DNA of 64,000 nt from Minisyncoccota bacterium (GCA_031291955.1 JARLIA010000011.1:6511-70510); one strand, 5' to 3'. Positions 108 to 21,198 are shown, counted from the first letter of the stretch. The notes: a model not told the origin generated them from the sequence alone. A program made the numbers and translations.

Positions 108-848
108 ATGTTTCAAAAACTTCTTTCCAGAATGTCCAGAAAGGCTGTGGCCGGCCTGGTCTTCGGCGTTATGCTGGCTTTGGGCGCCCTTATGGCCATC
201 GCTTTCACTGAACCGTCCACTTCTCCTTCCAGCATGCAGGAACCCCTTAATTCCAGTTCTACTGGCAATCTCAATAACGAAAAAAACGGCTCCGGGTCGG
301 GGACGAATGACACGCCGTACACGCAAATCCTGGGCGGCGTGGATGATTATAATAATAACTCCACGATGCCAAGCGACACGTATTCCGCCTCTTGGACGAC
401 GTGTAATTCCGGAAACAGTTATTGCGGCACGGGCGACGCGACCAATGCCAACAAGCAAGATCCCAACACCGGCCTGACCTGGTCGAACTGGCTTGATTCG
501 GGGAACAGCCACGACTGGTTTTGGGCCAACAACTGCGCGGAACCGGGGAGCGCCAGCGACCCCGGCACGTGCGTCAACAATGGAGACGCGGCCTGTCAAT
601 GTGTGAAACTGACCAGCTCAAAAACCGGTTGTGAAGCGCTGAGCGGCTGGCGCCTGCCATATCAGAAAGAACTGATGCAATCCTATATTGACGGATCCTG
701 GGGAAATCTATCTTCGGCTAACTACAGCTATTGGTCGTCTACTACCAACTCGTACAATACCCAGAGTGCTTGGTTCGTGTACCAGAACTACGGCAACACG
801 AACTACAACATTAAGACGGGTACCACTAAAGTCCGGTGCGTCCGTTAG
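108..848 (+). CDS. DGR target protein: N-terminal signal/TM segment, Ser/Thr-rich linker and C-terminal DUF1566 (Lcl C-terminal, C-type-lectin-like) domain carrying the variable region
   Basis: 246 aa. Hydrophobic N-terminus AVAGLVFGVMLALGALMAIAF. Motifs GLTW, WRLPYQKEL, YWSSTT and terminal KVRCVR are typical of DUF1566. The last ~45 codons are repeated at 2363-2513. Confidence 0.75.
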   Translation: MFQKLLSRMSRKAVAGLVFGVMLALGALMAIAFTEPSTSPSSMQEPLNSSSTGNLNNEKNGSGSGTNDTPYTQILGGVDDYNNNSTMPSDTYSASWTTCNSGNSYCGTGDATNANKQDPNTGLTWSNWLDSGNSHDWFWANNCAEPGSASDPGTCVNNGDAACQCVKLTSSKTGCEALSGWRLPYQKELMQSYIDGSWGNLSSANYSYWSSTTNSYNTQSAWFVYQNYGNTNYNIKTGTTKVRCVR

Positions 849-860
849 TCTTGTGGCAAC
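709..860 (+). repeat. DGR variable region (VR), including a conserved 3' end that runs ~12 nt past the stop codon (IMH-like)
   Basis: Direct repeat of 2363-2513. Differences are concentrated at positions that are A in the TR copy. Confidence 0.7.
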
Positions 861-906
861 GATTTGGTGATTTGATCATTCGGGTGATTTGGTTATTTGA
901 ATTATT

Positions 907-949
907 TAAGGTTCAACCTTTGGCTAGCCAAAGGTTGAACCTTAGGAAG
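907..949. repeat. 48-bp perfect palindrome family (cttcctaaggttcaacctttggct|agccaaaggttgaaccttaggaag), copy 1; outer 5 nt of the left arm absent
   Basis: Self-complementary; followed by cctcttt then ATG of the KilA-N ORF. Confidence 0.8.
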
Positions 950-956
950 CCTCTTT

Positions 957-1718
957 ATGACAAAAAGAAAAAAAGAAATAAACATAAAAGGCACGATAGT
1001 AGCTTTCTTTTCCGAGAAGGATAATGATTTTATTTGTTTGACTGACATGGCGAAATTCAAGGCTTATGATAGCGGAGTCGTTATCTCCAATTGGCTGACC
1101 ACGAAATATACCGTACAATTTATGGGCGCATGGGAACAATTGCATAATCAAAATTTTAATCTTATGGAATATCATAAGATTAAAAATGAAGTTGGCACCA
1201 ATGGGTTTATCGTTTCTTCGTCTATGTGGATCAGAAAGACAAATGCCATAGGCATTAGATCCAGCGCGGGCAGATATGGCGGTACTTTTGCTCATAAAGA
1301 CATCGCTTTCGAATTTGCAACTTGGCTCTCTCCGGAGTTTAAGCTTTATTTGATCAAAGAATTTCAAAGGCTGAAGATTGAAGAAAATGACCGGCTGACG
1401 CTTGGCTGGGATACAAAAAGAATGCTGACAAAAATAAATTATCGCATCCATACTGATGCGATCAAGGCTCACATAATTCCTAGCCGTATTTCAAGGGTTC
1501 AGGAAAATAATGTATACGCGAGCGAAGCTGATGTTTTAAATATGGCTTTATTTGGAATGACGGCGAAAGTTTGGCGAGACAAAAATTCAAAACTTGCGGG
1601 AAATATACGGGATTACGCGGATGTGACACAATTGGTCTGCCTGTACACGCTTCCTAAGGTTCAACCTTTGGCTAGCCAAAGGTTGAACCTTAGGAAGCCT
1701 CTTTATGGCTCGCTATAA
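957..1718 (+). CDS. KilA-N domain protein; C-terminal 20 aa encoded by read-through of palindrome copy 2
   Basis: 253 aa. GTFAHKDIAFEFATWLSPEFKLYLIKEF resembles the KilA-N/APSES DNA-binding core. AGGAAG lies 7 nt upstream of the ATG. Confidence 0.55.
   Translation: MTKRKKEINIKGTIVAFFSEKDNDFICLTDMAKFKAYDSGVVISNWLTTKYTVQFMGAWEQLHNQNFNLMEYHKIKNEVGTNGFIVSSSMWIRKTNAIGIRSSAGRYGGTFAHKDIAFEFATWLSPEFKLYLIKEFQRLKIEENDRLTLGWDTKRMLTKINYRIHTDAIKAHIIPSRISRVQENNVYASEADVLNMALFGMTAKVWRDKNSKLAGNIRDYADVTQLVCLYTLPKVQPLASQRLNLRKPLYGSL
1650..1697. repeat. 48-bp perfect palindrome, copy 2
   Basis: 24-bp arms with no loop; identical to 4306-4353; followed by cctcttt then ATG of avd at 1705. Confidence 0.85.
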
Positions 1719-2064
1719 CCACCTTCTTGTTTTCCAGCGGTCTTATGACTTGAATCTGGAAATATATCGCACGACCCACAATTTCCCTCGGGAATATAAA
1801 TATAGTTTGGGACAAAAAATGAAAGAAATTTCCGCGGAACTTTTGGATTGGATCGTGGTGACCAATTCCCAAAAAGACAAGACGCCCTATTTTTCCAAAA
1901 TAAAAATGCAGATCGAAAGATTGCGCATCCAGATCCGGGTGGCGTATGATTTGAAAATAATCAAAAGCCAAAGATTGGAATTTTTGAACCGGATCATCGA
2001 AGAAATTTCCATGCAGGTCAGTGGCTGGGAAAACTGGGCGAAGACTCAGGATGCAAAGGCTTAG
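1705..2064 (+). CDS. avd: Avd-like accessory variability determinant (four-helix-bundle protein family)
   Basis: 119 aa. N-terminal LLVFQRSYDLNLEIYRTTHNFPREYKYSLGQKMKE matches the four-helix-bundle / 23S-IVS protein family that includes DGR Avd. Lies between VR and TR. Confidence 0.7.
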   Translation: MARYNHLLVFQRSYDLNLEIYRTTHNFPREYKYSLGQKMKEISAELLDWIVVTNSQKDKTPYFSKIKMQIERLRIQIRVAYDLKIIKSQRLEFLNRIIEEISMQVSGWENWAKTQDAKA

Positions 2065-2084
2065 GCTCTAAGAGCCTAAGCCTT
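2056..2084 (+). terminator. Perfect hairpin (13-bp stem, 3-nt loop) overlapping the avd stop codon; no U-tract
   Basis: aaggcttaggctc-taa-gagcctaagcctt. The core ggctctaagagcc is related to the boundary repeat core. Confidence 0.35.
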
Positions 2085-2362
2085 TGGGTTTCCGCGCTCG
2101 GTTCCCAGTTCTTTGAAAATTTAGAGAAGAAGATTTGGCGAAGCCAGAATTTTTATTTCGATTTCGGCCTGACAGTCGGGACAAATAAAAAGAGAGCATC
2201 GAATCGTTGCGGTTCCGCCTGCTTGATGGCGTTGGTTTTTGGAAAAGTTCGTTTCGATAAAAAAATATCAAACGCGCGACTGGCGTCAAGAGCATTAAGT
2301 TGCTTTGAACCATACTCAATTTCGGTTGAGATTGGTTCAGTTGAGGAAAAATGGTGGAATGA

Positions 2363-2513
2363 TATCTTCGGCTAACAACAACTATTGGTCGTCTACTACC
2401 AACTCGAACAATACCCAGAATGCTTGGAACGTGAACCAGAACAACGGCAACACGAACAACAACAATAAGACGAACACCAACAAAGTCCGGTGCGTCCGTT
2501 AGTCTTTGGCAAC
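2363..2513 (+). repeat. DGR template repeat (TR), AAC-codon-rich
   Basis: ~151-bp direct repeat of VR. Encodes an N-rich pseudo-peptide (NNNYWSSTTNSNNTQNAWNVNQNNGNTNNNNKTNTNKVRCVR). 14 adenine positions differ from VR. Confidence 0.75.
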
Positions 2514-2628
2514 TATTCACTTTTTACCGCTGGCAATGCTGGCTTCGCCAAGCCTTTTTCGGGAAAAATTTCCAAGCAAAAAACCCGCTTGCGCGGATTT
2601 CTTGACGAGCACCAACTGGTGCAGGACT

Positions 2629-2769
2629 CGGACTTGTCATTCCTATGCAGTAATACTAGCAGAGAATGGAAAATATGTCAAATTTGGTTATTCACACGAT
2701 TGTGGAGATGAGGGGAATCGAACCCCCGGGCTCTGGAATGACAAGTCCGAACCCGCACCAAGCCATCCC
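2629..2769. other. Structured region between TR and RT, including a minus-strand tRNA-like acceptor/T-arm minihelix
   Basis: 15-bp inverted repeat (2629-2643 cggacttgtcattcc / 2735-2749 ggaatgacaagtccg) encloses a T-arm-like hairpin. The minus strand of 2702-2769 folds as GGGGAUG...GGGGGUUCGAUUCCCCU-CAUCUCC-A with no anticodon arm. Its T-arm is identical to that of tRNA-Glu at 59094. Confidence 0.35.
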
Positions 2770-2815
2770 CACAACGAAAATATCATAACACAAAAATAAG
2801 CAAGCGGCAAAAAAA

Positions 2816-3938
2816 TCATTTTTTAACTCTAAAATAATAAAAATCAAGGGACGATGGTTCAAGATAAGATTTCAACACGCCGAAATGTCTGGTGTAAAGC
2901 GACTTTCGCAGGCGCACCGTGTCGGCATGGCGGAATTGACCGTAGTAGGAATTTATGACGGATAAAATATTCTGAAGATCTTTTTGGAAAGTTTCCGGAG
3001 AATCGGGGAGGGGAGAATCGTTAAATTTTTTCAGCTTTTCTTTGAGATGGTTCACCACTCTTCGTCGGATGAGAGAATAGCCGGGCTTTATGATAAACCC
3101 GACAAAATTAATTCCACGACAGACGGATTGTTGGACGGATTTTCTCGGATGAAGAGTGAGTTGCAGTTCTTTTTTCAAAAAAATATCGATTCGTTTTTTC
3201 CAAATTTGAAGCTGGCGGGGATTTTTGCCAATCAAGATAAAATCATCGACATAGCGCAGATAAAATTTCACCCCCAAATCGTGTTTTACGAATTGATCGA
3301 GCCGATTGAGATATATATTGGCGAAAAACTGGGAAGTCAAATTGCCGATCGGAAGCCCCCGATCGGGCGAAATCCTAAAAAGGGTTTTGTTTTTAGGAAT
3401 GAGTTTGGCCAGATTCGGGTTGCCTTTGCGATAATAATTTTTGGTCGGATCGTGAAAAATTATTTTTTCGGCCAGCCATAAGATTTCCGGATTTCTTACC
3501 TGTTTTTTTGATGGCCGCGAAAAGAATATTTTTATTGAGCGACATAAAAAAAGCGGCAATGTCCATTTGGAGATAATGAGCGGGATGGGAAAAATTTTCA
3601 GTGGCGGTTCTTAAGGATTTTTTGAGATATTTTATGGCGATGTGAGAACCTTTGCCTTTTCGGCAGGCGAAAGAGTGAAAAATGAATTTTTTTTCGAAAA
3701 TCGGTTCCAGATAGCTGACGAGCAGGTGATGGACAATCCTATCGCGAAAATCAGCGGCGAAAATTTCGCGCGGCTTGGGAATAGTTACCACAAAACAAAT
3801 GGATTGCCCGGGATGATAAACGCGGTCTTGAAGCTCGCGTTCCAGTTTCAAGAGTTCATATTCAAAATTTAGCTCGATTCTGGCGGCATTGGCGGTTTTT
3901 CTTTTCCGTTTTCGGCAATCGTGATAGGCTTTTAACAA
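2816..3938 (-). CDS. DGR-type reverse transcriptase, interrupted by a +1 frameshift at the T7 run 3504-3510
   Basis: N-terminal ORF (3393-3938) has RDRIVHHLL, SFACRKGKGSHIA and LQMDIAAFF (RT motifs 1-3). C-terminal ORF (2816-3559) has GLPIGNLTSQFFANIYL, YLRYVDDFILIG (YxDD), GINFVGF and SYYGQFRHAD. Removing one A from the A7 run on the coding strand gives a continuous ...AAIKKQVRNPEILWLAEK... Confidence 0.8.
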
Positions 3939-3982
3939 ATTTTGAAAAGTAAAATAAGTAACGGCGCAAGATTTTGCGTCGC

Positions 3983-4004
3983 CTCTCTCTCTCTCTCTCT
4001 CTCT
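3983..4004. repeat. (CT)11 dinucleotide microsatellite in the divergent RT / transposase promoter region
   Basis: Uninterrupted ctctct... tract 45-66 nt upstream of the RT ATG (minus strand) and ~115 nt upstream of the transposase ATG. Confidence 0.9.
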
Positions 4005-4119
4005 CGATTTCCGAAATTATTTTTTCCTCCTCCATTTTTTGTTTTTCTATGTTATTATAATAACACAGTCAAAAAAAGAGCTAAACAAAAAAAACAGACC
4101 TCGGAGGTCTGTCAACCAA

Positions 4120-4794
4120 ATGAGAAAAACCGAGTTTGCCAACGAGGAATACTATCATATTTACAATCGCGGGGTAGACAAGCGGGAAGTGTTTGGCCAT
4201 GCCAATGATTATGAAAGATTTTTGCTTGGTATGGATTTGTTGAATGACGAGGATGACGGACTGATGCTTCTTTGGAGGGACTTGCACAAAAATGGGGCGG
4301 CCGGGCTTCCTAAGGTTCAACCTTTGGCTAGCCAAAGGTTGAACCTTAGGAAGCCTCTCGTTGATATCATCGCTTATTGTCTCAACCCCAATCATTATCA
4401 TTTCATCTTGAAGCAAAATAAAGACAAGGGGATAGAAAAATTTATGCAAAAATTGAGCACCAGCCATACGATGTATTTCAATAAAAAATATCAGAGAAGC
4501 GGCGCGCTATTTCAAGGCCGGTATAAATCCATCCACATCGACTCCAATGAATATCTGCTGTATCTCTCGTGCTATGTCAACGCCAATCATTTCATTCACG
4601 GGTATAATAGTGTTGAGGACTGGCCATATTGCAGTTATCCGGATTATCTCGGCAAAAGAAACGGAAAATTGTGCGGCAAAGAAATGATACTCGGGCAGTT
4701 TGACAATGATTTTTCCCAATATGAAAAATATCTGAATGACAACGCGCTCCACTTCAAAGAGAAAAAGGAAATGGAAAAATATATCTTGGAATAA
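4120..4794 (+). CDS. HUH tyrosine transposase, IS200/IS605 TnpA / REP-associated (RAYT-like, COG1943) family, with an in-frame palindrome insertion
   Basis: YHIYNRGVDKREVF, AYCLNPNHYHFIL (HuH) and ALFQGRYKS (catalytic Tyr context). Start taken at MRKTEF. The 48-bp palindrome 4306-4353 is translated in-frame as LPKVQPLASQRLNLRKP between the N-terminal motif and the HuH motif. Confidence 0.75.
   Translation: MRKTEFANEEYYHIYNRGVDKREVFGHANDYERFLLGMDLLNDEDDGLMLLWRDLHKNGAAGLPKVQPLASQRLNLRKPLVDIIAYCLNPNHYHFILKQNKDKGIEKFMQKLSTSHTMYFNKKYQRSGALFQGRYKSIHIDSNEYLLYLSCYVNANHFIHGYNSVEDWPYCSYPDYLGKRNGKLCGKEMILGQFDNDFSQYEKYLNDNALHFKEKKEMEKYILE
4306..4353. repeat. 48-bp perfect palindrome, copy 3 (inside the transposase CDS)
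   Basis: Identical to 1650-1697. Confidence 0.9.
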
Positions 4795-4831
4795 AAGGCT
4801 GCAAGAGCCAAGCTCCTTAATGATGGGAGTT

Positions 4832-4881
4832 AGGCTCTAAGTGCCTGGAAAAATTTTAACATTGCTTGGCACTTAGAGCCT
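4832..4881. repeat. Inverted-repeat hairpin (14-bp stem aggctctaagtgcc / ggcacttagagcct, 22-nt loop); right boundary repeat of the DGR module
   Basis: Lies between the transposase stop and the giant gene start; the left arm plus loop is the reverse complement of window positions 1-28. Confidence 0.6.
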
Positions 4882-4887
4882 TGAAGA

Positions 4888-7800
4888 GTGCGTAAAGTAA
4901 AAGAATTAAAAAAAATTAAAGTGACCTCCAAAACAAAAATTATTTTATACTCCTTGGCTTTTTTCCTGATCTTTTTGGGTTTTTCCGGCAATGCCAATGC
5001 CGCTCAAATTGGCAACACCATCGATTGGGCCTGGAGCGGGCAGTTGGGATGGATCCATTTTAACGGCAGCGCAGCCACGCCGGATTATGGCGTGACGACG
5101 ACCGACGGCACTGGTCTAACTGGCTATGCCTGGAGCGAAAAAGGCGGCTATATCAAATTTTCCGGCACTTGTTCGCAAGCCGGCGGATGCCCGGGCGGAG
5201 GGAATACATATCAAGTGACAGCTTCCGGCACGTGCGCAGTTGGTCGGGAATGTCTTTCCGGCTGGGCTTGGGGAGCGGGAATCGGCTGGATCCATTTTGC
5301 CGCCAGCGGTTCAAACTATGCCAACAATTCCAATACCACCTACGGCGTCTATATCGATTCCCAAGGATTTTTCAGGGGCTACGCCTGGAATGACCAATTC
5401 GGCTGGATCCATTTCGGTGGAGCGTGTACCGGAGGAGTTGGAACTTGCCTGAATGGAGAAGCGACTTACGCGGTTCATGAAGGTCCTAAAAACGTCTACT
5501 ATTCCGTCGGCCAATCGGTGTCCAATCTCATGACCGGTTCGCCGACGATGAATCTGACGAGTGGCGTGGCGACTTTTTCCGTGGCGCAGACGGGAAACAT
5601 CGGGGTGGGCGACCGGGTGACGTATAACACTTCCAGCGTCGCTTACATTGCATCGAAAACCGACTCGACCGGGACTGATTGGCAACTGGTGACGGCCACC
5701 GGCGGAACGCCGGCGGATGTCTCTGTCGCGACGGTCAATTCCATCACCCACGAATACACTTCACTTGCGGCGGCGATTGCCGGAGCCACAGACGTCAACC
5801 ATCTCAACAACACCGATCTCACAGTCGCCAACGTGGTTTTGAATATTCCTTGTTATTATGATTCCGGATCGGACACGACAGCGGTGACGGTTTCCGGCTA
5901 CACGACTTCGGCGGCGGATTACATCAAAATTTACACGCCGTCCAACACAACTACTTATCCGGCTGAAGCCAATAATTCGCAGCGGGCGATGGGGAAGTGG
6001 GACGCGACGAAATATAATCTTCAAGCAGGGGCTTCGTCATCCAGTCTTTTGAATATTCTTGTTCCTGATGTGAAAATTGACGGGCTGCAATTATATCAAT
6101 CGGTAGGATATTATTCATCTGTAGTAGGATTGAATAGCAGCGGTGTTGTCAATCTCAGTGTGTCTAATAGTATTATAAGAGCATTCAGTGGCAATACAGG
6201 AAATTATGGCATAATTATTGAAGGCGGAAGCACTGGAAGTGTTTATAATATTTACAATAACATTGTCTATGGGGCGAGTTATGATTCTGGGTGTAATGGC
6301 CTAATGGTTGAGAATAGTTCGGTGTTTTTGTATAACAATACCTTTTACGGCAACTATACGGGAATTTATGGCTATAGCGGCACACTTATAGCTAAAAATA
6401 ACATTGTCTATAACAACACCACCGACTATTCCGGCTCATTCGATTCTTCTTCCACTAACAATTTGAGCAAAGATGCGACTGCGCCGGGGTCTAATGCGGA
6501 AATAAATCGGACCGTCCAATTCGCCAACGCCGGCGCCAATGATTTTCATCTTTCCCTTGCCGACACGGCCGCCCTGGGACACGGCGCGAATCTCTCCGTC
6601 GATACCAATTTTGCTTTCGATACTGACATTGACGGCCAAACGCGACCGACGATATGGGACATCGGAGCGGACCAATCCGCCACGGCGATATATTATTCCG
6701 TTGGGCAAAATACCAACGATCATTCTTCTGGCGGGAATGTTTCCATCTCTTCCGGCGAAGCGACTTTTGACACGCCTCAAACGGCGACGAACTTGGGCGT
6801 GGGAGATGTGCTCACCGCCGGAGGCAACGCTTATTACATTTCCAAAAAAATCGACACTTCCCATTGGGATGTTATTACGGCTCTTGGCGCGACGCCGGCG
6901 GATTTATCTTCCACATCGGTTACCTCCATTACTCACGCCTTCGCGTCTTTGGAAGGTGCGGTCGATGCCAGCACTGCCTCTGGCGCGTTCGACAGTTCGC
7001 ATCTCAACACCAAAGATCTGGTGGCGAACAATTATCAATTGAATATTCCTTGCTATTACGATACCGGTGCGGACACGACAGCGGTGACGATTTCGGGATG
7101 GACAACAGGCGCTTCCAATTACATTCGTATTTACACGCCGAAGAGTCTGACGACGGAAGCCAATTTTTCGCAAAGGGCGACGGGTAAGTGGGATAATTCG
7201 AAATATTCAATTTCAGCCAATGCTAACGTTATTTATGTGCAGATTGAAAATGTCCATGTAGACGGGTTGCAAGTCGAACTTAATCCAACATCAGATGATG
7301 GATATTTAGGAATAGGAGTAAATTCCCAATCATACATCATCGATGGGTTTGAAGCTTCAAATAATATCGTTAAACAGACAACTCAAAAAGTTGATGCGTA
7401 CGGGGTAATTTGTTATACAGGAGCATCTACTTGTAAAATATGGAATAACATTGTTTATGGCTTTAGTTTAGGATCGGCAGGAAGAGGGTCTATTTTGGTG
7501 GGCGGGTCAAGCAGTACTGTGGCCTATGTTTACAATAATACGACCTATGGAAATTATATCGGAATACAGGAATTGGCAGGCGGGGAAATATTTCTCAATA
7601 ACAATCTTTCATACAATAACGGGACCGACTATGACGGCTCTTTCGATCCGTCTTCCACCAACAACTTGAGTAAAGACGCGACTGCGCCGGCCTACGGGAC
7701 GTATTATCGTAACGCGACGGTAACTTTCGTTGACGCTACGAACGATGATTTCCATCTGGCTTCCACCGATACGGGAGCGATTGGCAACGGCGCGAATTTG

Positions 7801-10800
7801 ATCAGCGACACTTATTTGCCTTTTTCCACTGACATCGACGGCCAAACGAGACCGGCGACGGGAGCCTGGGATATCGGGGCGGATGAAAGCACTAGCAGGG
7901 TCTACTATTCCGTCGGTCAATCCGCCAGCAATCTCATGACCGGCGCGCCGACCATGACCATGGTTTCCGGCGCGGCGGTTTTGTCGGTGGCGCAGACGGG
8001 AAACATCGGGGTCGGTGATCGGGTGACTTACAACACCTCGCAAATCGCTTACATCGCTTCCAAAACAGATTCATCCGGCACCAAATGGAATTTGGTGACA
8101 GCTCTCGGCGCGACACCGGCCGATGTGACGACGGCCGTGACTGTCAATTCCATCACGCACGAATACACTTCGCTTGCCGCGGCGATTGCCGGCGCCAGCG
8201 GCGCCAACCACATCAACAATCTCGATCTTACGGCCGCCAACGTGGTTTTGAATATTCCTTGCTATTATGATTCCGGCCCGGATACGACGGCGGTGAATGT
8301 TTCCGGTTTCACAACCAGCGCGACAAACTACATCAAAATTTATACCCCCCACATCACAACTACTTATCCGGCCGAAGCCAATTTTTCGCAGAGGGCGATG
8401 GGGAAGTGGGATAATGGGAAGTATAGTTTGGAAGTTTCAGGTCCTTGGAAAAACGCGATTGATAATAATGTAATTTATACCCAGGTTGTCGGCTTGCAAA
8501 TCAGCCTGGCAAACGCCGCTGGTTTTGTCGGGGATATCCGCGATGATGCCGGCGGACTTATGGCCAGCTTTAATTTAATCACGGGAGACGACACGGGATA
8601 TGGAATTATAAGCGGAACTTATATATACAACAATATAATATATAACTTTCCAAACAACTATGGAATTTATATCACCTCGGGTTATGTTTATAATAATACT
8701 GTTTATAATGCGGGTATTGCATACGCTTGGTCAGGCGGTAACGGAACATTTTTAGAAAATAATATTGCTCAAGATACGGTAACTGGATATAGCAATAATC
8801 CTCCGGGTGCCAACAATCTTTCCGATCACGCCGACGCGCCCGGGTCCAATCCGCAAAATTCCAAAACCGTCCAATTCGCCGACGCGGCCAAGTCTGATTT
8901 CCATTTGAGCCCGAATGACTCGGTCGCGCGGGGAGCAGGAACAAATCTTTCCGCCGATTCCAATTTAGCGTTCAACACCGACATCGACGGCCAAACCAGA
9001 CCAGCCACAGGCGCTTGGGACATCGGCGCCGACCAATCCGCCACAGCCATATATTATTCCGTCGGCCAAAATACTTCCGATCACAAAACCGGCACGCCAA
9101 CAGTGACGATTGCCGGAAACGCGGTGACGTTCAGCACGGGCCAGACGGCCACCAATATGGGAGTGGGAGACAAAATTACTTATACCGTGAGCTTGACCAA
9201 CTATTCTTGCTATATTACTTCAAAGACATCCACCGACGGCACCGGCTGGATGTGCGAAACGGCCACCGGTGGCACGCCGACCGCCGCGCCCGGTGGTTCG
9301 GCTGTCGTTTCCATTACTCACGCGTTCAGTTCTCTCAATGCGGCCGTCTCCGGCGCGTCAGGCGCGAGTTATCTCAACACTTCGGATTTATACACCAACA
9401 ATTACCAATTGAATTTTCCTTGCTACTACGATTCAGGCCCGGATATGACGACGGTGACAGTTGGCGGTGGCTACACAACGGCCGAGCCGAACTATATTAG
9501 AGTTTATACGCCGTATAACACAATAACGGAAGTGAATCAGTCACAAAGAGCGATGGGGAAGTGGGATAATTCTAAATATAACGCCAGCGGATATATAAAT
9601 TTAGGGACAAACTATGTATGGATTGATGGTTTGCAAATTGTAAATTATTCATCCGGCGGCTATCCTTCGGCAATCGAGGCGAATGGGACTGCCACTCTCG
9701 GTCTTCGAGTATCCAATAGTATCATTTTTATGGACACTTCGGGAACGGCTAGTGGCACAGGAATTAAATCGGGCGCTTCGATGACGGTCTGGAATAATGT
9801 TATATATATGGCAAATACTACCAGTGCGGGGATGTATTTTAGCTACGGTAAATTTTATATTTACAACAATACGGTATATGGAGGAAGCGACGGAATTAGC
9901 GGTGCAAACCTTGGCGAAGTAATGTATGCCAAGAATAACCTTTTTTATGGTAATAATCTTGATTATCACGGCGCGTTCGACTCTTCTTCCACCAACAACT
10001 TGAGCAAAGACGCCACCGCGCCGGGCAGCAATCCGATAAACTCAGCCACCGTAAATTTTGCCAACGCGACGGCCAATGATTTTCATCTTTCCCCCACTGA
10101 CACGGCCGCATTGGGACACGGCGCCAATTTGAGCGCCGATTCCAATTTAACGTTTAATACCGACATTAATGGCAACAGCCGCGGGAGTTTTTGGTCGATC
10201 GGGGCGGATAATGGACCAGTGGCGACCATTAACGCGCCGCACGCGACAAACACCAGCGCCAGCACCGGATTGGATTCGGGTCTCGTCGGCTACTGGTCGT
10301 TTGACGGTCCGACCATTTCCGGGACAACAGTGAAAGATCTCTCCGGCCAAAACAACAACGGAACCAACTCCGGCGCCACGCCGACTATTGGGGCGCGGGG
10401 GCAGGCATTGAGTTTTGACGGGACGAGCAGTGGTGTCGCAACTGGTAATATATACCCAACCGGAAGCGGGGTTTCTTATGCTTTTTGGATGAAAACACCG
10501 CAAACGACTAATGCTATGCCTGTTATGGGTTGGGGATATGATCAATGTTGGGTCAGTAACGTAGGTTCGCATAAAATCAACTGCACTAATGATGGCGGAG
10601 GTTATGACGGAGTGACTTCCAGCATTAGCGTGGATGACAATAAATGGCACTTTATTGTTTTTGCTTCAGCGGGTGGAAGCAATGGAACCGTGACGCTTTA
10701 CGTGGATGGACAAAATCAGGGCAGCAACACTGAGACGCTAGGCATATCAAACGATTTTGCTATAAAATGGGGTTCGGTAGGATTCGACAGTCGCCACTAC

Positions 10801-11592
10801 GCCGGAGCACTTGATGAAGGCAGGGTTTATAATCGCGTTTTGTCGGCGGCTGAAGTGAATGACCTTTATCATCTCGGCGGGCAAACCGTCGGCGCGCCGC
10901 AGGCGGCGACGGGACCGACTTCCGGACTGGTGGGTCACTGGACGTTTGACGGCCCGACCATTTCCGGCACAACCATTGCCGACACCAGCGGGAGCGGCAA
11001 CAACGGCACCAACAATGGCGCCACGCCGGTGATGGGGAAATTGGGGCAGGCGATGAGTTTTGACGGGACGGATGATTATGCGTGGATAAACAATTCTAGT
11101 GCTCTTGATTTTGGCTCCGGAGATTTTTCCGTTGGGATGTGGGTGAACAAAAAGGCGAACTCTTCTGGTTGGAGTAATACTTTCGGTGTGAATAAATGGA
11201 ATACCGGAGAATCTCCTGGTACAAATGAATGGGGTCTTAACCTTACTAATGCCGGAAATGATAACACTTTCAGCTTTAATATCGAAGATGGAGCTACAAC
11301 ATATTCCGTTGCCGATACGACCATTTTTCTCTTGAATAAATGGTATCACGTGGAGGGCGTTAAATCGGGAAGTTATTTGTATATTTATGTAGATGGAGTT
11401 TTGAAAAATTCAAATAACATAGGCAGTCATTCTGTTAACAATGTTGGGGATGCTATCCAGATTGCGAGAAATGGAGGGGGGTCGATTCACTATACGAAAG
11501 CCGATTTCGACGATGTCCGCGTTTATAACCGCGCGCTGTCGGCGCAAGAGGTGGGGGATTTGTATCAGGCGGGAAGTGTGACGATGAAATAA
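4888..11592 (+). CDS. Giant secreted surface protein (2234 aa): signal peptide, four tandem ~400-aa parallel beta-helix-like modules (ABAB) and two C-terminal LamG (concanavalin-like) domains
   Basis: N-terminal KTKIILYSLAFFLIFLGFSGNANA. Repeated NNIVYG / NNTFYGN / DIGADQ beta-helix signatures. C-terminal LVGYWSFDGPTISGTTVKDLSGQNNNGTN and LVGHWTFDGPTISGTTIADTSGSGNNGTN are LamG-like. Confidence 0.85.
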   Translation: MRKVKELKKIKVTSKTKIILYSLAFFLIFLGFSGNANAAQIGNTIDWAWSGQLGWIHFNGSAATPDYGVTTTDGTGLTGYAWSEKGGYIKFSGTCSQAGGCPGGGNTYQVTASGTCAVGRECLSGWAWGAGIGWIHFAASGSNYANNSNTTYGVYIDSQGFFRGYAWNDQFGWIHFGGACTGGVGTCLNGEATYAVHEGPKNVYYSVGQSVSNLMTGSPTMNLTSGVATFSVAQTGNIGVGDRVTYNTSSVAYIASKTDSTGTDWQLVTATGGTPADVSVATVNSITHEYTSLAAAIAGATDVNHLNNTDLTVANVVLNIPCYYDSGSDTTAVTVSGYTTSAADYIKIYTPSNTTTYPAEANNSQRAMGKWDATKYNLQAGASSSSLLNILVPDVKIDGLQLYQSVGYYSSVVGLNSSGVVNLSVSNSIIRAFSGNTGNYGIIIEGGSTGSVYNIYNNIVYGASYDSGCNGLMVENSSVFLYNNTFYGNYTGIYGYSGTLIAKNNIVYNNTTDYSGSFDSSSTNNLSKDATAPGSNAEINRTVQFANAGANDFHLSLADTAALGHGANLSVDTNFAFDTDIDGQTRPTIWDIGADQSATAIYYSVGQNTNDHSSGGNVSISSGEATFDTPQTATNLGVGDVLTAGGNAYYISKKIDTSHWDVITALGATPADLSSTSVTSITHAFASLEGAVDASTASGAFDSSHLNTKDLVANNYQLNIPCYYDTGADTTAVTISGWTTGASNYIRIYTPKSLTTEANFSQRATGKWDNSKYSISANANVIYVQIENVHVDGLQVELNPTSDDGYLGIGVNSQSYIIDGFEASNNIVKQTTQKVDAYGVICYTGASTCKIWNNIVYGFSLGSAGRGSILVGGSSSTVAYVYNNTTYGNYIGIQELAGGEIFLNNNLSYNNGTDYDGSFDPSSTNNLSKDATAPAYGTYYRNATVTFVDATNDDFHLASTDTGAIGNGANLISDTYLPFSTDIDGQTRPATGAWDIGADESTSRVYYSVGQSASNLMTGAPTMTMVSGAAVLSVAQTGNIGVGDRVTYNTSQIAYIASKTDSSGTKWNLVTALGATPADVTTAVTVNSITHEYTSLAAAIAGASGANHINNLDLTAANVVLNIPCYYDSGPDTTAVNVSGFTTSATNYIKIYTPHITTTYPAEANFSQRAMGKWDNGKYSLEVSGPWKNAIDNNVIYTQVVGLQISLANAAGFVGDIRDDAGGLMASFNLITGDDTGYGIISGTYIYNNIIYNFPNNYGIYITSGYVYNNTVYNAGIAYAWSGGNGTFLENNIAQDTVTGYSNNPPGANNLSDHADAPGSNPQNSKTVQFADAAKSDFHLSPNDSVARGAGTNLSADSNLAFNTDIDGQTRPATGAWDIGADQSATAIYYSVGQNTSDHKTGTPTVTIAGNAVTFSTGQTATNMGVGDKITYTVSLTNYSCYITSKTSTDGTGWMCETATGGTPTAAPGGSAVVSITHAFSSLNAAVSGASGASYLNTSDLYTNNYQLNFPCYYDSGPDMTTVTVGGGYTTAEPNYIRVYTPYNTITEVNQSQRAMGKWDNSKYNASGYINLGTNYVWIDGLQIVNYSSGGYPSAIEANGTATLGLRVSNSIIFMDTSGTASGTGIKSGASMTVWNNVIYMANTTSAGMYFSYGKFYIYNNTVYGGSDGISGANLGEVMYAKNNLFYGNNLDYHGAFDSSSTNNLSKDATAPGSNPINSATVNFANATANDFHLSPTDTAALGHGANLSADSNLTFNTDINGNSRGSFWSIGADNGPVATINAPHATNTSASTGLDSGLVGYWSFDGPTISGTTVKDLSGQNNNGTNSGATPTIGARGQALSFDGTSSGVATGNIYPTGSGVSYAFWMKTPQTTNAMPVMGWGYDQCWVSNVGSHKINCTNDGGGYDGVTSSISVDDNKWHFIVFASAGGSNGTVTLYVDGQNQGSNTETLGISNDFAIKWGSVGFDSRHYAGALDEGRVYNRVLSAAEVNDLYHLGGQTVGAPQAATGPTSGLVGHWTFDGPTISGTTIADTSGSGNNGTNNGATPVMGKLGQAMSFDGTDDYAWINNSSALDFGSGDFSVGMWVNKKANSSGWSNTFGVNKWNTGESPGTNEWGLNLTNAGNDNTFSFNIEDGATTYSVADTTIFLLNKWYHVEGVKSGSYLYIYVDGVLKNSNNIGSHSVNNVGDAIQIARNGGGSIHYTKADFDDVRVYNRALSAQEVGDLYQAGSVTMK

Positions 11593-16614: not shown

Positions 16615-19257
16615 GACAAAGCGTTAAAAAAATGCAAGTATTTGCCTCACGGATTGTACCAATATTTGGAAATCGCTAAGGCTGCTTAATGATAAAATCA
16701 ACTATAAAATTTAGAAGCAAAAGCGGGTGAAACTTCGTGTTTAAGTTTGTCTTAAACGAGGACCCGTCGGGTTCTTTTTTAATTCGCGCGGAAATCATTA
16801 TAATCATTGTCGCGATTATAATCATTATAAAAATTTCCGCATGAACGAACTTTGACAATTTAGGTCTTGATCAAAAATATTCAGTTCCGCTGTCAGCGGA
16901 AATGGAAGTGGATATTTGCGATCAGTCCTCTGATATCTTCGCAATAGGGTATCAGAGATGTAGGTAATGCAATATGCAAACTGTGTAGTTGGCAATTTTG
17001 GTAATTGCTAACTGCTAACCTGCCCGCAATGCTTCGCAATAGCGATGCAGGCGGGCTAAAAGAAGAGCGGTAATATTAATGCATACGGTGGATGCCTTGA
17101 CATCAAAGAGCGATGAAGGACGTAGCAGTCTGCGATAAGCTTCGGGGAGGTGACGAGCAACCTTTGATCCGGAGATTTCCGAATGGGACAACCCAGCCCG
17201 TAAGGGTTATCATTAACTGAATTCATAGGTTAATGAGGCGCACCCGGTGAATTGAAACATCTTAGTAGCCGGAGGAAGAGAAAACAACAGTGATTTCGCA
17301 AGTAGTGGCGAGCGAAAGCGGAACAGCCTTGAGTCATTAGCGATTTTGTTAGCTGAACGTTTTGGAAAGAACGGCCAGAGAGAGTGAAAGCCTCGTAGGC
17401 GAAAACGGAATCGTGGAACCAGGACTCAAAACAAGTAGGGCGGGACCGGAGAAATCCCGTTTGAAGATGGGAGCACTATCTCCCAAGGCTAAATATCTTT
17501 GATGATCGATAGCGAACTAGTACCGTGAGGGAAAGGTGAAAAGCATCCCGATGAGGGAGATGAAATAGTATCTGAAACCGTATGCTAACGAAGAGTTAGA
17601 GCTCCGACACTTGTGTCGGGGTGATAGCGTGCTTTTTGTAGAACGATCCAGCGAGTTAGTTCTATGCGGCTTGGATAAGCGACGTTGTCGTGTATCCGTA
17701 GTGAAAGCGAGCCTTAACCGGCGAATATGTCGTATGGACTAGACCCGAAGCCAGGTGAGCTATTTATGAGCAGGGTGAATTTACTGTAAAAGGTAAAGGA
17801 GGCCCGAACCCACGCACCGTGCAACATGCGGGGATGACTTGTGAATAGAGGAGAAATTCCAATCGAACTTGGCGATAGCTGGTTCTTCCCGAAATAGCTT
17901 GAGGGCTAGCGTTGGGCAACTATGTTTCGGAGGTAGAGCTACTGAATGAGGATTCGCGGTTCGCCGTAGGATTCTCAACCAAACTCCGAATTCCGAAATA
18001 ACTATCCCAGCAGTCAGTACTCCGGGGCTAAGCTCGGAGCACAAGAGGGAAAAAGCCCATGACCGCCGTCTAAGGTCCCAAAATCTATGTTAAGTGGAAA
18101 AGGAGGTGAAGTTTCTTATACACCTAGGAGGTTGGCTCAGAAGCAGCCATCCTTTAAAGAGTGCGTAACAGCTCACTAGTCTAGAGACTTCGCGCCGAAA
18201 ATTCAACGGGGCTCAAACATAGTACCGAAGACGCGGATTTGATATGTATTTATACATATTGAGTGGTAGGGAAGCGTTCCATATGCGCTGAAGCGCCATG
18301 CGTGAGCAGACGTGGAGTGTATGGAAGTGAGAATGCTGGAACGAGTAACCGCAATTGGGGTGAGAACCCCCAACACCGAAAGTCTAAGGTTTCCTGGGCA
18401 ATGGCAATCATCCCAGGGTTAGCCGGGCCTAAGGCGAGGCCGAAAGGCGTAGTCGATGGACATATGGTTAATATTCCATAGCTTTCACATTATTCGATGG
18501 AGTGACGCATCGCTGTACTTCTTGCCGATTATTGGATTTCGGTAGGAATAGCGAGGTGGCCAGACAGGCAAATCCGTTTGGCAATACACCAAGCCGTTTC
18601 TCGAATTCCGGTTCGCCGGAAGAAGAGGAAGGAGCGCGGTGCCAGGAAAAGCTTCTAAGGTTCGTAATGTGAAATCCGTACTAAAACCGACACAGGTAGA
18701 CTGGGCGAGTAGCCTAAGGTGAACGAGTGAACCTTCGTTAAGGAACTCGGCAAAATAGCGTCCGTAACTTAGGAATATGGACTACCGGTGCTTAGCTTGC
18801 TAAGCGCTGGTCGCAGCGAAAGATACCAAGCGACTGTTTACCAAAAACACAGGTCTCTGCAAACCCGCAAGGGGATGTATAGGGGCTGACGCCTGACCAG
18901 TGCCGGAACGTTAACGGGAGCGGTGAAAGCTTATCCCCGAAGCGCCGGTGAACGTCAGCGATAACTATAATCGTTCTAAGGTAGCGAAATTCCTTGACAG
19001 GTAAGTTCTGTCCCGCATCAAAGGCGTAACGACTTGGTAACTGTCTTAACGAAGAGCTCGGTGAAATTGCAATGACGGTAAAGATGCCGTCGACCTGCAG
19101 CAAGACGAAAAGACCCCGTGGAGCTTTACTATAGCTTGGCATTGCGTTTGAGGTTATGCTGCCTAGAATAGGTGGGAGCCTTTGAAATCCCGATTCAGGT
19201 CGGGATGGAGGCAACAGTGTAATACCACTCTGTGTGATTTTAAACGCTAACCCTGGG

Positions 19258-19375
19258 CTGTTAGAAAATTGGAAACATTTTTTTAACTCCTCAGCTTTAG
19301 ATTCAAGTAATAGTGTAAAAAGTATCTATGATGATATAAGTTGAGAGTTATGGAATGATTCTTTCTAGTTTTCTA
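19258..19375 (+). other. AT-rich ~118-nt insertion/expansion segment within 23S, replacing a short hairpin upstream of GGACAGUGCCUGGUGGGUAGUUUGACUGGGGCGG
   Basis: Alignment by eye to the E. coli 23S sequence in this block shows ~35 nt there versus ~150 nt here. Confidence 0.4.
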
Positions 19376-19398
19376 CCAGTCCGGGGACAGTGCCTGGT

Positions 19399-19431
<33 letters not shown>

Positions 19432-19592
19432 GGCAACGGAGGCGTTTACAAAGGTAGGCTAGGTCCGGATGGAAATCGGGCCGGTAGTGCAAACGCATAA
19501 GCCTGCTTTACTGCAAGACTCATTAGTCGATCAGTCACGAAAGTGGAAGTTAGTGAACCGACCATCGCTCATAGGAGCGTGGAAGATCATCA

Positions 19593-19625
<33 letters not shown>

Positions 19626-19650
19626 CCTCCCAAGAGTCCACATCGACGGA

Positions 19651-19711
<61 letters not shown>

Positions 19712-19749
19712 TGGCTGTTCGCCAATTAAAGTGGTACGCGAGCTGGGTT

Positions 19750-20470
19750 CAAACCGTAGAGAAGTCGAAAGTTTATAAAGTTATAAAGTTCATAAAGTCG
19801 ACTTTTGTACAGTTTGAACCCGAGGAAAGACATCAAATAATCACGGCGGCCTTGAAGAGTAATCTTCAAGTGCGAAACTGACTCATATCGATGAAGTCCT
19901 GTTGCATGACAAACTGTCATGTGCTAGGATAATATCGAGGGAAGTCGTGTATGCTAGAATCAATTTCGTCAATTGAAAAATCTTATTTGGCTGGTTTTTT
20001 GGATGCTGATGGGAGCATTTACGTGCAAGCAAAACCAAACGAGACTTATCGTTTCGGTTTTCAAATCGCGTCGTACATAGTTTTCTATCAATCGTCTAAA
20101 GATGAAAAAGCCTTTTCCGACATGTGTTCCATTATTAAACTGGGGCACAAGCGTGTCAGAAAAGACGGTATCATAGAATATATAATCAGCAGGCAAGAGG
20201 AAATTATTCAATTTATTAATTTAATTGAGCCTTATATAAAACTGAAAAAAGCTCAATTGGAATTATTGAAAAAGATAATTGATCTTAAGAAGAAAGTCCA
20301 GGATAAAAAAGATTTTATAAAATTGATAAATTTGATTGATAAATTTCGCGAATTAAATTATTCAAAGAAGCGAAAAAAACGTACATTGACCCCGTAGAGA
20401 CTAAACGTCAGTCTCCTAATTCAATAAAATTAGGATGAAGGTATAGTCCAATGCACGTAGCAATACGTGG
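19750..20470 (+). mobile_element. Group I intron in 23S domain V/VI (inserted within GAGCUGGGUU|..ACGUCGUGAGACAG), encoding a LAGLIDADG endonuclease
   Basis: Flanking exon sequence rejoins to the conserved 23S block. The 5' exon ends in U and the intron ends in G (cgtgG|aaaacatgcgtgagacag). Confidence 0.65.
19951..20397 (+). CDS. Intron-encoded LAGLIDADG homing endonuclease
   Basis: 148 aa; LAGFLDADGSI motif. Confidence 0.8.
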   Translation: MLESISSIEKSYLAGFLDADGSIYVQAKPNETYRFGFQIASYIVFYQSSKDEKAFSDMCSIIKLGHKRVRKDGIIEYIISRQEEIIQFINLIEPYIKLKKAQLELLKKIIDLKKKVQDKKDFIKLINLIDKFRELNYSKKRKKRTLTP

Positions 20471-21088: not shown

Positions 21089-21198
21089 TTTGGTGGTTCT
21101 AGCGAAGTGGTCACACCCGATCCCATTCCGAACTCGGTCGTTAAGCACTTCCGCGCCGATGGTAGCTCTTCGCGAGCAAGAGTAGGTCGCCGCCAGAA
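21089..21198 (+). rRNA. rrf: 5S rRNA
   Basis: TTTGGTGGTTCTAGCGAAGTGGTCACACCCGATCCCATTCCGAACTCGGTCGTTAAGC...GCCGATGGTAGC...GCCGCCAGA matches the 5S consensus. Confidence 0.8.

Follow-up and report, generated by a model that had tools for sequence, protein, structure and literature searches.

Does a locus that carries all parts of a diversity-generating retroelement (DGR) still diversify its target? This question is raised by positions 108 to 4035 of a 64,000 nucleotide (nt) long stretch of DNA from a Minisyncoccota bacterium (GCA_031291955.1 JARLIA010000011.1:6511-70510), in the following called the window. A first-pass annotation had proposed a DGR there that is aimed at a DUF1566/C-type-lectin-like protein. 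The proposal was supported by the bias of a repeat pair, by the domain matches of the encoded proteins and by a reverse transcriptase (RT) resembling the Bordetella enzyme bRT. We consider it likely that the locus is a chromosomal DGR of the Patescibacteria (candidate phyla radiation, CPR) clade and that this particular copy is inactive or nearly so. Since all DGR parts are present, it appears as an ordinary member of that clade, the placement being suggested by similarity and not by a tree. To our knowledge DGRs are known from no richer source than CPR bacteria.

The core of the element is a pair of near-repeats, one at the end of the target gene and one downstream of it, whose existence was borne out by nucleotide alignment. 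Without gaps the variable repeat (VR, 709-852) and the template repeat (TR, 2363-2506), both on the plus strand, align over 144 nt at an offset of 1654 with 15 mismatches. Adenines make up 52 of the 144 TR bases (36%) and occupy 13 of the 15 mismatch sites (binomial p 8e-5, Fisher p 3e-5), such that the adenine bias holds when the TR base is tabulated for each mismatch of the new alignment. The altered adenines are all found at codon positions 1 or 2, while the remaining two mismatches are the third-position C of AAC codons in which adenines were changed as well. The 14 of 16 mismatches at TR adenines counted originally are reproduced once position 708/2362 is added. Likewise, the earlier count of 11 differing codons is accurate, 9 of them being AAC in the TR and the other two AAT. 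The TR frame is rich in asparagine as described (AAC provides 15 of its 46 codons), and gene callers annotate the open frame of 65 codons that contains it.

The VR spans the final 46 codons of the target gene. Its last 25 nt (828-852, corresponding to 2482-2506) are free of mismatches and include the stop codon TAG (846-848) and a GC-rich 14-mer. The likeness thus continues beyond the target stop, as had been pointed out, into a segment resembling an initiation-of-mutagenic-homing element. The flanks of VR and TR part after GGCAAC, and if one indel is allowed the likeness reaches approximately 864/2518. A second VR for the TR was not found in the 64-kb window, leaving a single partner, nor did the window contain a second RT, avd or target gene. 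Directly 3' of the VR lies a T/G-rich motif (853-900, plus strand) in which GGTGATTTG is repeated. It has counterparts 3' of the VR in the relative loci L001, L002, L003, L010, L018 and L025 and could serve as a target-site signal or belong to the promoter region of avd.

The target gene (108..848, plus strand) encodes 246 amino acids (aa), and the protein is identical to NCBI MDR3583291.1, labelled Ca. Pacebacteria. It starts with a hydrophobic helix (residues 11-32), followed by a low-complexity linker and a C-terminal C-type-lectin-like domain of the Lcl_C/DUF1566 family. The profile search yielded a match to PF07603 at an E value of 1e-10 (more exactly 9.7e-11) over residues 117-246. In an AlphaFold (AF2) model built with 64 homologues the C-terminal domain reached a predicted local confidence (pLDDT) above 90. 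The best solved match of the model in Foldseek was the C-terminal domain of Legionella Lcl (8q4e_A), followed by dozens of C-type-lectin-like domains, such that family and fold agree with those originally assigned. Identity of the target to Lcl is only 21%, and a PDB sequence search with the protein returned no match. In the targets of the window (108-230) and of relatives the N-terminal hydrophobic helix is followed by a conserved FTEP(S/T) motif, which could be a processing or anchoring signal.

Between VR and TR lies avd (1705..2064, plus strand), which encodes a 119-aa accessory four-helix-bundle protein. The Avd-type assignment is supported by Pfam bAvd (2.5e-16; 60.6 bits, above the cut-off of 40) and by NCBIfam DivGenRetAVD (1.4e-19), whose 70.3 bits fall just below the cut-off of 80. 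A PDB sequence search with Avd gave no match.

The RT that had been placed after the TR is indeed of the DGR type. Its best solved relative is Bordetella bRT (8ub7_A, 4.6e-38, versus 7e-15 for a group II intron RT), and the motifs IGNLTSQ and YVDD are present. The RT is encoded on the minus strand (3938..2816), from which the motifs quoted earlier have to be read, and is not a single frame: an extra A in the run 3503-3509 splits it into two open reading frames (ORFs; 3938..3393 and 3559..2816). Every part named in the first pass was thus verified, while the opposite strand of the RT, its frameshift, an insertion of 245 nt and a KilA-N gene had been missed. With one A removed at 3503-3509 the RT aligns unbroken to Patescibacteria RTs of 390-420 aa with up to 80% identity. 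The nearest RT homologues (54-80% identity) are all labelled Patescibacteria.

The RT faces the TR and lies on the strand opposite to target, avd and TR. The same convergent order of target, avd, TR and facing RT is found in L001-L004 and in 14 further Patescibacteria loci, while more distant relatives show the canonical order of TR followed by RT. In the relatives the TR abuts the convergent RT stop, which itself abuts or overlaps the 3' arm of the DGR RNA. TR and RT on different strands have been noted before for some DGRs (Wu et al. 2018, PMC5758913).

To characterize this RNA, the region between avd and RT was analysed in 6 loci using RNAalifold and pair counts with slid controls. Six helices, P1 to P6, were obtained, for which 94% of the cells were paired compared to at most 53% in the slid controls. 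Compensatory changes occur at 36 pairs, all of them outside the TR. In the window the RNA has a length of about 435 nt (2127-2559, plus strand). It is enclosed by the outer 20-bp helix P1 (2127-2147 with 2539-2559). The structured 5' part (2127..2362) further contains the hairpins P2 (2150-2191) and P6 (2305-2340) as well as P5 (2220-2224 with 2290-2294), and the 3' part (2509..2559) consists of the 3' strand of P3 and the 3' arm of P1. A single strand at 2201-2219, GAATCGTTGC-G-GTTCCGCC, pairs with the sequence right after the TR (P3, 2201-2210 with 2509-2518) and with the sequence right before it (P4, 2212-2219 with 2353-2360). Two such adjacent duplexes also beat shuffles in 11 more distant convergent loci of unrelated sequence, and the test combined over 19 loci gave a Fisher p of 2e-12.

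In the cryo-EM structure of the Bordetella RNA the spacer strand forms a template:primer duplex with the 3' end of the TR and a neighbouring stop duplex upstream of the TR (10.1101/2023.10.23.563531). A Bordetella-like two-duplex reading is supported here since the TR boundaries coincide with P3 and P4: the 3' strand of P3 abuts the end of the TR/VR homology and that of P4 lies directly 5' of the TR. The structured segment is located upstream of the TR and not between TR and RT, where a Bordetella-type RNA carries its spacer; this follows from the convergent RT gene directly adjoining the TR. Two points speak against this assignment. P3 has one internal mismatch in the window group, where the shuffle test alone misses it, and the priming site or nucleotide, which in a Bordetella-type RNA is a spacer adenosine priming through its 2'-OH, and the ends of the cDNA would be placed by analogy with Bordetella. 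The VR flank GCAACGATT, a perfect complement of the P3 5' strand, was considered as a general homing signal and rejected, as the complementarity holds in the window only and not in L001-L003. In relatives the 3' arm of P1 overlaps C-terminal codons of the RT, so that RT mRNA and DGR RNA would be antisense to each other at their 3' ends.

Diversification could then proceed as follows. Transcription of the plus strand through avd would provide the structured RNA, in which the upstream strand 2201-2219 would form its adjacent duplexes with the 3' side (P3) and the 5' side (P4) of the TR. With these duplexes on either side, the TR would form a loop that has a start site at one end and a stop at the other. 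Apart from the upstream position of the spacer-equivalent, the logic would be that of the Bordetella phage with its template:primer duplex and its stop duplex. This suggests how DGRs with a convergent RT may set the start and stop of their cDNA. The RT-Avd complex would copy the TR into cDNA with misincorporation opposite adenines. This cDNA would replace the VR (709-852), whereby 15 AAC and 3 AAT codons would be re-coded. They specify the C-type-lectin-like tip of what is predicted to be a membrane-anchored surface protein.

Whether the window copy still carries out such a cycle depends on its RT, and an intact RT ORF, as expected for a DGR, is not found in the window: the gene has a frameshift and an insertion near its 3' end, and the available ATG is out of frame (see below). 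The A-run at 3503-3509 is A7, giving a +1 frameshift in the fingers region, versus A5-A6 in frame in the relatives; the frameshift is thus a mutation of the window lineage. At the 3' end the RT is interrupted by an insertion of about 245 nt (2575-2818) that is not seen in the DGRs of relatives. Past the insertion the old C-terminal tail of the RT is still legible as a relic (2524..2574, minus strand). It ends in ..FSRKRLGEASIASGKK*, comparable to the tail ..YSRKGLGEASINGK of the homologue P0005, and is severed from the RT body. Because of the frameshift in the fingers region and the loss of the tail, the copy is probably not diversifying now, and with its RT gene broken the VR is probably frozen.

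The VR data are in agreement with this. The VR is the same in the window and in the target homologues P0121 and P0242, though P0121 differs elsewhere by D160G, and the 90% cluster of the target comprises two full-length sequences with one VR. We count this uniformity across the available assemblies among the grounds for inactivity. A sister element, the copies of which share one RT protein (P0004) and one TR, behaves differently. Its RT body is intact, and its target occurs in 13 variants that are identical over 320 aa and differ only in the last 40 aa, there only at AAC-type positions. At the DNA level the TR of the sister element is constant, while its VR differs between L003, L152 and L154.

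Several observations weigh against a dead element. The lack of VR variation is weak evidence because it comes from only three assemblies of the window species, probably from one site. The window element did diversify in the past, since its VR differs from the TR at 13 adenines. Some full-length RT could arise when RNA polymerase or ribosome slips on A7. Outside the 64 kb seen, the genome could encode an intact RT that acts in trans.

Taken together these points amount to a DGR that is still active, be it by slippage at A7 and at a (GA)n tract further upstream or by an RT encoded elsewhere, with the uniform VR reflecting sparse sampling. Runs of A are known slippage sites, Avd, TR and RNA helices are all intact in the window, and diversification occurs in the sister element despite a consensus RT that is likewise out of frame with its ATG at (AG)16. 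We nevertheless regard continued activity as unlikely. The relatives do not share A7, which therefore looks like a mutation rather than a programmed site. In addition, the RT tail is severed by the insertion, the 64 kb hold no second RT, and one VR in the target 90% cluster stands against 13 in that of the sister.

Still less probable, and in our view very much so, is that the real gene is intact and the lesions in the RT arose as artefacts when simple repeats were sequenced or assembled. Both frame problems do lie in simple repeats (A7 and (CT)11), and the (CT)n tract coincides with the very end of one Logan contig and with a scaffold gap in L001. However, the window and the separately assembled runs SRR23300979 and SRR23300977 (Logan loci L005 and L006) are 100% identical across A7. 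Furthermore, a 245-nt insertion is not explicable by base-calling error and is also present in L007, which stems from a different NCBI assembly. With two run-level assemblies and another NCBI assembly identical at these sites, the lesions are not random assembly errors. The notion that the repeat is a decayed partial gene duplicate diverged by ordinary mutation finds some comfort in the annotated open frame around the TR but has practically no probability left, being refuted by mismatches almost solely at the adenines of one copy in codon positions 1-2 and by a conserved context in which covarying RNA helices flank the TR copy, Avd and a DGR-type RT adjoin, and the arrangement recurs in dozens of loci.

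The 5' region of the RT gene (3939..4035, minus strand) shows a second peculiarity. An ATG at 4035..4033 is followed by a short leader and by (CT)11 at 3983-4004, i.e. (GA)11 in the sense of the RT. This ATG is off the RT frame by one repeat unit, and a start codon within the RT frame itself is missing. A (GA)8-22 tract located 40-56 nt before the conserved RT N-terminus is found in the window, L001, L002, L003/L004, L011 and L018. In all five loci in which the frame was checked (L018 not among them) it follows a short leader whose ATG is out of the RT frame. Among the 120 best RT homologues, 27 carry an in-frame M-leader-(RE)n, and about 20 are cut off before the N-terminal motif, as out-of-frame alleles would be. 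In the sister element the tract is (AG)16 and out of frame in all five consensus contigs of one lineage, and its target diversifies nonetheless. The contigs of L001 and L006 break at the tract, which is no more than suggestive. Since active relatives share the out-of-frame tract, we did not count (CT)11 as damage and rejected it as a lesion peculiar to the window copy.

By analogy with simple-sequence contingency loci, such as the CT repeats of Helicobacter pylori oipA (PMC10564699) and the AG repeats of Mycoplasma MmyCI (PMC3498834), the conserved dinucleotide tract may be a phase-variation switch for the RT and make the mutator phase-variable. Given its position between start codon and RT N-terminus, most cells would be RT-off and rare repeat-length variants would be on. 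Tentatively, and with more doubt than confidence, we propose a DGR subfamily in which hypermutation is gated by the slippery (GA)n tract and the DGR RNA is permuted with an upstream spacer-equivalent. Separately, the 245-nt insert would be a new mobile two-RNA module. Literature searches turned up neither a DGR RT gated by (GA)n nor a spacer located upstream.

The insert itself (2575..2818) contains two small-RNA genes on the minus strand. RNA1 (2770..2700, 71 nt), preceded by a promoter-like site (2810..2782), resembles tRNA-Ala and the tRNA-like domain of transfer-messenger RNA (tmRNA). It has a 7-bp acceptor stem of the alanine type (G3:U70, A73), and in the T-arm and the 3' strand it matches tRNA-Ala(CGC) genes without a difference. 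A D-arm is missing, and a 9-bp bulged hairpin with an 8-nt loop is present. The Rfam tmRNA model scores 35.6 bits, below the gathering threshold of 47, and covers the tRNA-like domain only; ARAGORN does not call RNA1, and no tag ORF was found. By the tests run, RNA1 is neither a tmRNA nor a tRNA. RNA2 (about 2646..2575) has a promoter-like site at 2681..2653 and a terminator at 2591..2573, and 16 nt of its 5' end are complementary to the tip of the RNA1 hairpin. Where the hairpin sequence changes, in L111, L144 and L149, the RNA2 partner follows (16/16, 13/13 and 17 with one G.U, respectively).

The two-RNA module is located at about 3720-4020 in L111, 5434-5680 in L144 and 1808-2090 in L149. 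In L111 and L149 it lies within long ORFs of the other strand, of which the one in L111 carries an intein. A 26-nt T-arm pattern was found in 64 metagenome loci, mostly ordinary tRNA-Ala(CGC) genes or 3' fragments of them. Five of these loci share the D-armless shape and three of the five also have the co-varying antisense partner, which makes a simple remnant, i.e. a tmRNA pseudogene or an att-site remnant, unlikely. That RNA1 is a tRNA rescuing the RT by quadruplet decoding or frameshift suppression was also rejected, since its loop would read GACA or GAUA, which occur at neither frameshift site, and a D-arm is absent. RNA2 has no stop codon and no tag-like frame and was therefore dismissed as the tag-coding piece of a two-piece tmRNA. 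Searches of viral_contigs with the RNA1 pattern gave no match, the relatives L001-L003 contain no Rfam tmRNA-like match, and with the covariance model R1 neither the window nor the DGR relatives yielded another copy.

A further insertion separates target and avd, for which the gap in relatives is only about 64 nt. This cassette (901..1718, plus strand) consists of a KilA-N ORF (957-1718, Pfam KilA-N 2.5e-19) and two 52-nt perfect palindromes (901-954 and 1649-1702), each of which brings AGGAAG-N7-ATG to the following gene, KilA-N and avd, respectively. The third palindrome copy of the window (4305-4358) is native coding sequence of a Y1_Tnp gene (4120..4794, plus strand; Pfam Y1_Tnp 3e-9; NCBIfam REP_Tyr_transpos 4.8e-9, below its cut-off). 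This gene resembles transposases associated with repetitive extragenic palindromes (REP), i.e. REP-associated tyrosine transposases (RAYT). It is 77% identical to the syntenic gene of L003 including the palindrome-coded peptide, and an insertion of the palindrome was therefore rejected for this copy. Inverted repeats of 35 nt (1-35, at the window edge, and 4825-4859; 89% complementary) bracket the block of DGR and RAYT-like gene. Their core, of the TTAGGCTCTAAG type, recurs in a perfect hairpin located at the stop codon of avd (2055-2085), and they may be REP-like sequences.

Adjoining the RAYT-like gene, positions 4888-11592 encode a repetitive surface-type protein of 2234 aa with internal repeats of about 1.2 kb. 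At this position relatives have LamG and beta-helix proteins. Farther away, the 23S (17065-19817) and 5S (21089-21198) rRNA genes are set 1.27 kb apart with a LAGLIDADG-type ORF (19951-20397) in the gap. The 64-kb window contains no 16S rRNA gene.

The DGR as such is routine, as targets with DUF1566/C-type lectin (CLec) domains are an already described category. Both DGRs of this kind and those of CPR bacteria are well known from the literature (PMC5758913, PMC8144416). The value of the locus lies in a natural comparison between a disabled copy with a fixed VR and a sister from other samples whose RT body is intact and whose VR has 13 alleles. If the proposals made above are true, the RNA clamp and the dinucleotide tract bear on how cells restrain a programmed hypermutator.

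For its peculiar parts the locus has partial precedents. As in oipA and MmyCI, the dinucleotide tract is located in the 5' coding region between start codon and protein body, and in-frame and out-of-frame alleles are both found among the RT homologues. Where those loci gate surface or restriction-modification genes, the gated gene here would encode a mutagenic RT, and the tract lengths were compared between consensus contigs, five of which, from one lineage, are all (AG)16. RNA1 shares with tRNA-Ala and the tRNA-like domain of tmRNA the acceptor stem with G3:U70 and A73, the T-arm and a partial Rfam tmRNA match. Unlike these RNAs it lacks a D-arm and a tag-coding domain, stays below the Rfam threshold and has an antisense partner RNA.

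Among the DGRs, the element of Bordetella phage BPP-1, arranged in the order mtd-avd-TR-brt, is together with its DGR RNA one of the systems closest to the window locus (Handa et al., PMC6182149; bioRxiv 10.1101/2023.10.23.563531). Both elements show adenine-specific transfer from TR to VR, an Avd together with an RT that carries IGxxxSQ and YxDD motifs (bRT being the best solved match), and a VR at the C-terminus of a CLec-fold protein with a GC-rich invariant 3' segment. In both, one RNA strand forms two neighbouring duplexes, with the 3' end of the TR and with the sequence 5' of it. The window differs from BPP-1 in its convergent RT on the opposite strand, in a spacer-equivalent upstream of the TR instead of between TR and RT, in the outer 20-bp helix that closes the RNA and in its host, a CPR chromosome instead of a phage. 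Furthermore, no GC-rich hairpin directly follows the VR of the window, where the T/G-rich motif is found instead.

The target recalls the Legionella pneumophila DGR and the target category 'd' (DUF1566/CLec2; Wu et al. 2018, PMC5758913). Here too the VR overlaps a DUF1566/Lcl_C-type domain of a surface-exposed protein, and the Lcl C-terminal domain is the best structural match. The low identity to Lcl, the N-terminus formed by a single hydrophobic helix, the RT clade and the cassette architecture set the window element apart. With the DGRs of CPR bacteria, i.e. clade 2 of Roux et al. 2021 (PMC8144416) and the 'CPR set' of Wu et al. 2018 (PMC5758913), it shares a chromosomal location and nearest RT and target homologues that all stem from Patescibacteria metagenome-assembled genomes. 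What distinguishes the window copy from other CPR DGRs is its frameshifted RT, the insertion of two small RNAs and the KilA-N cassette.

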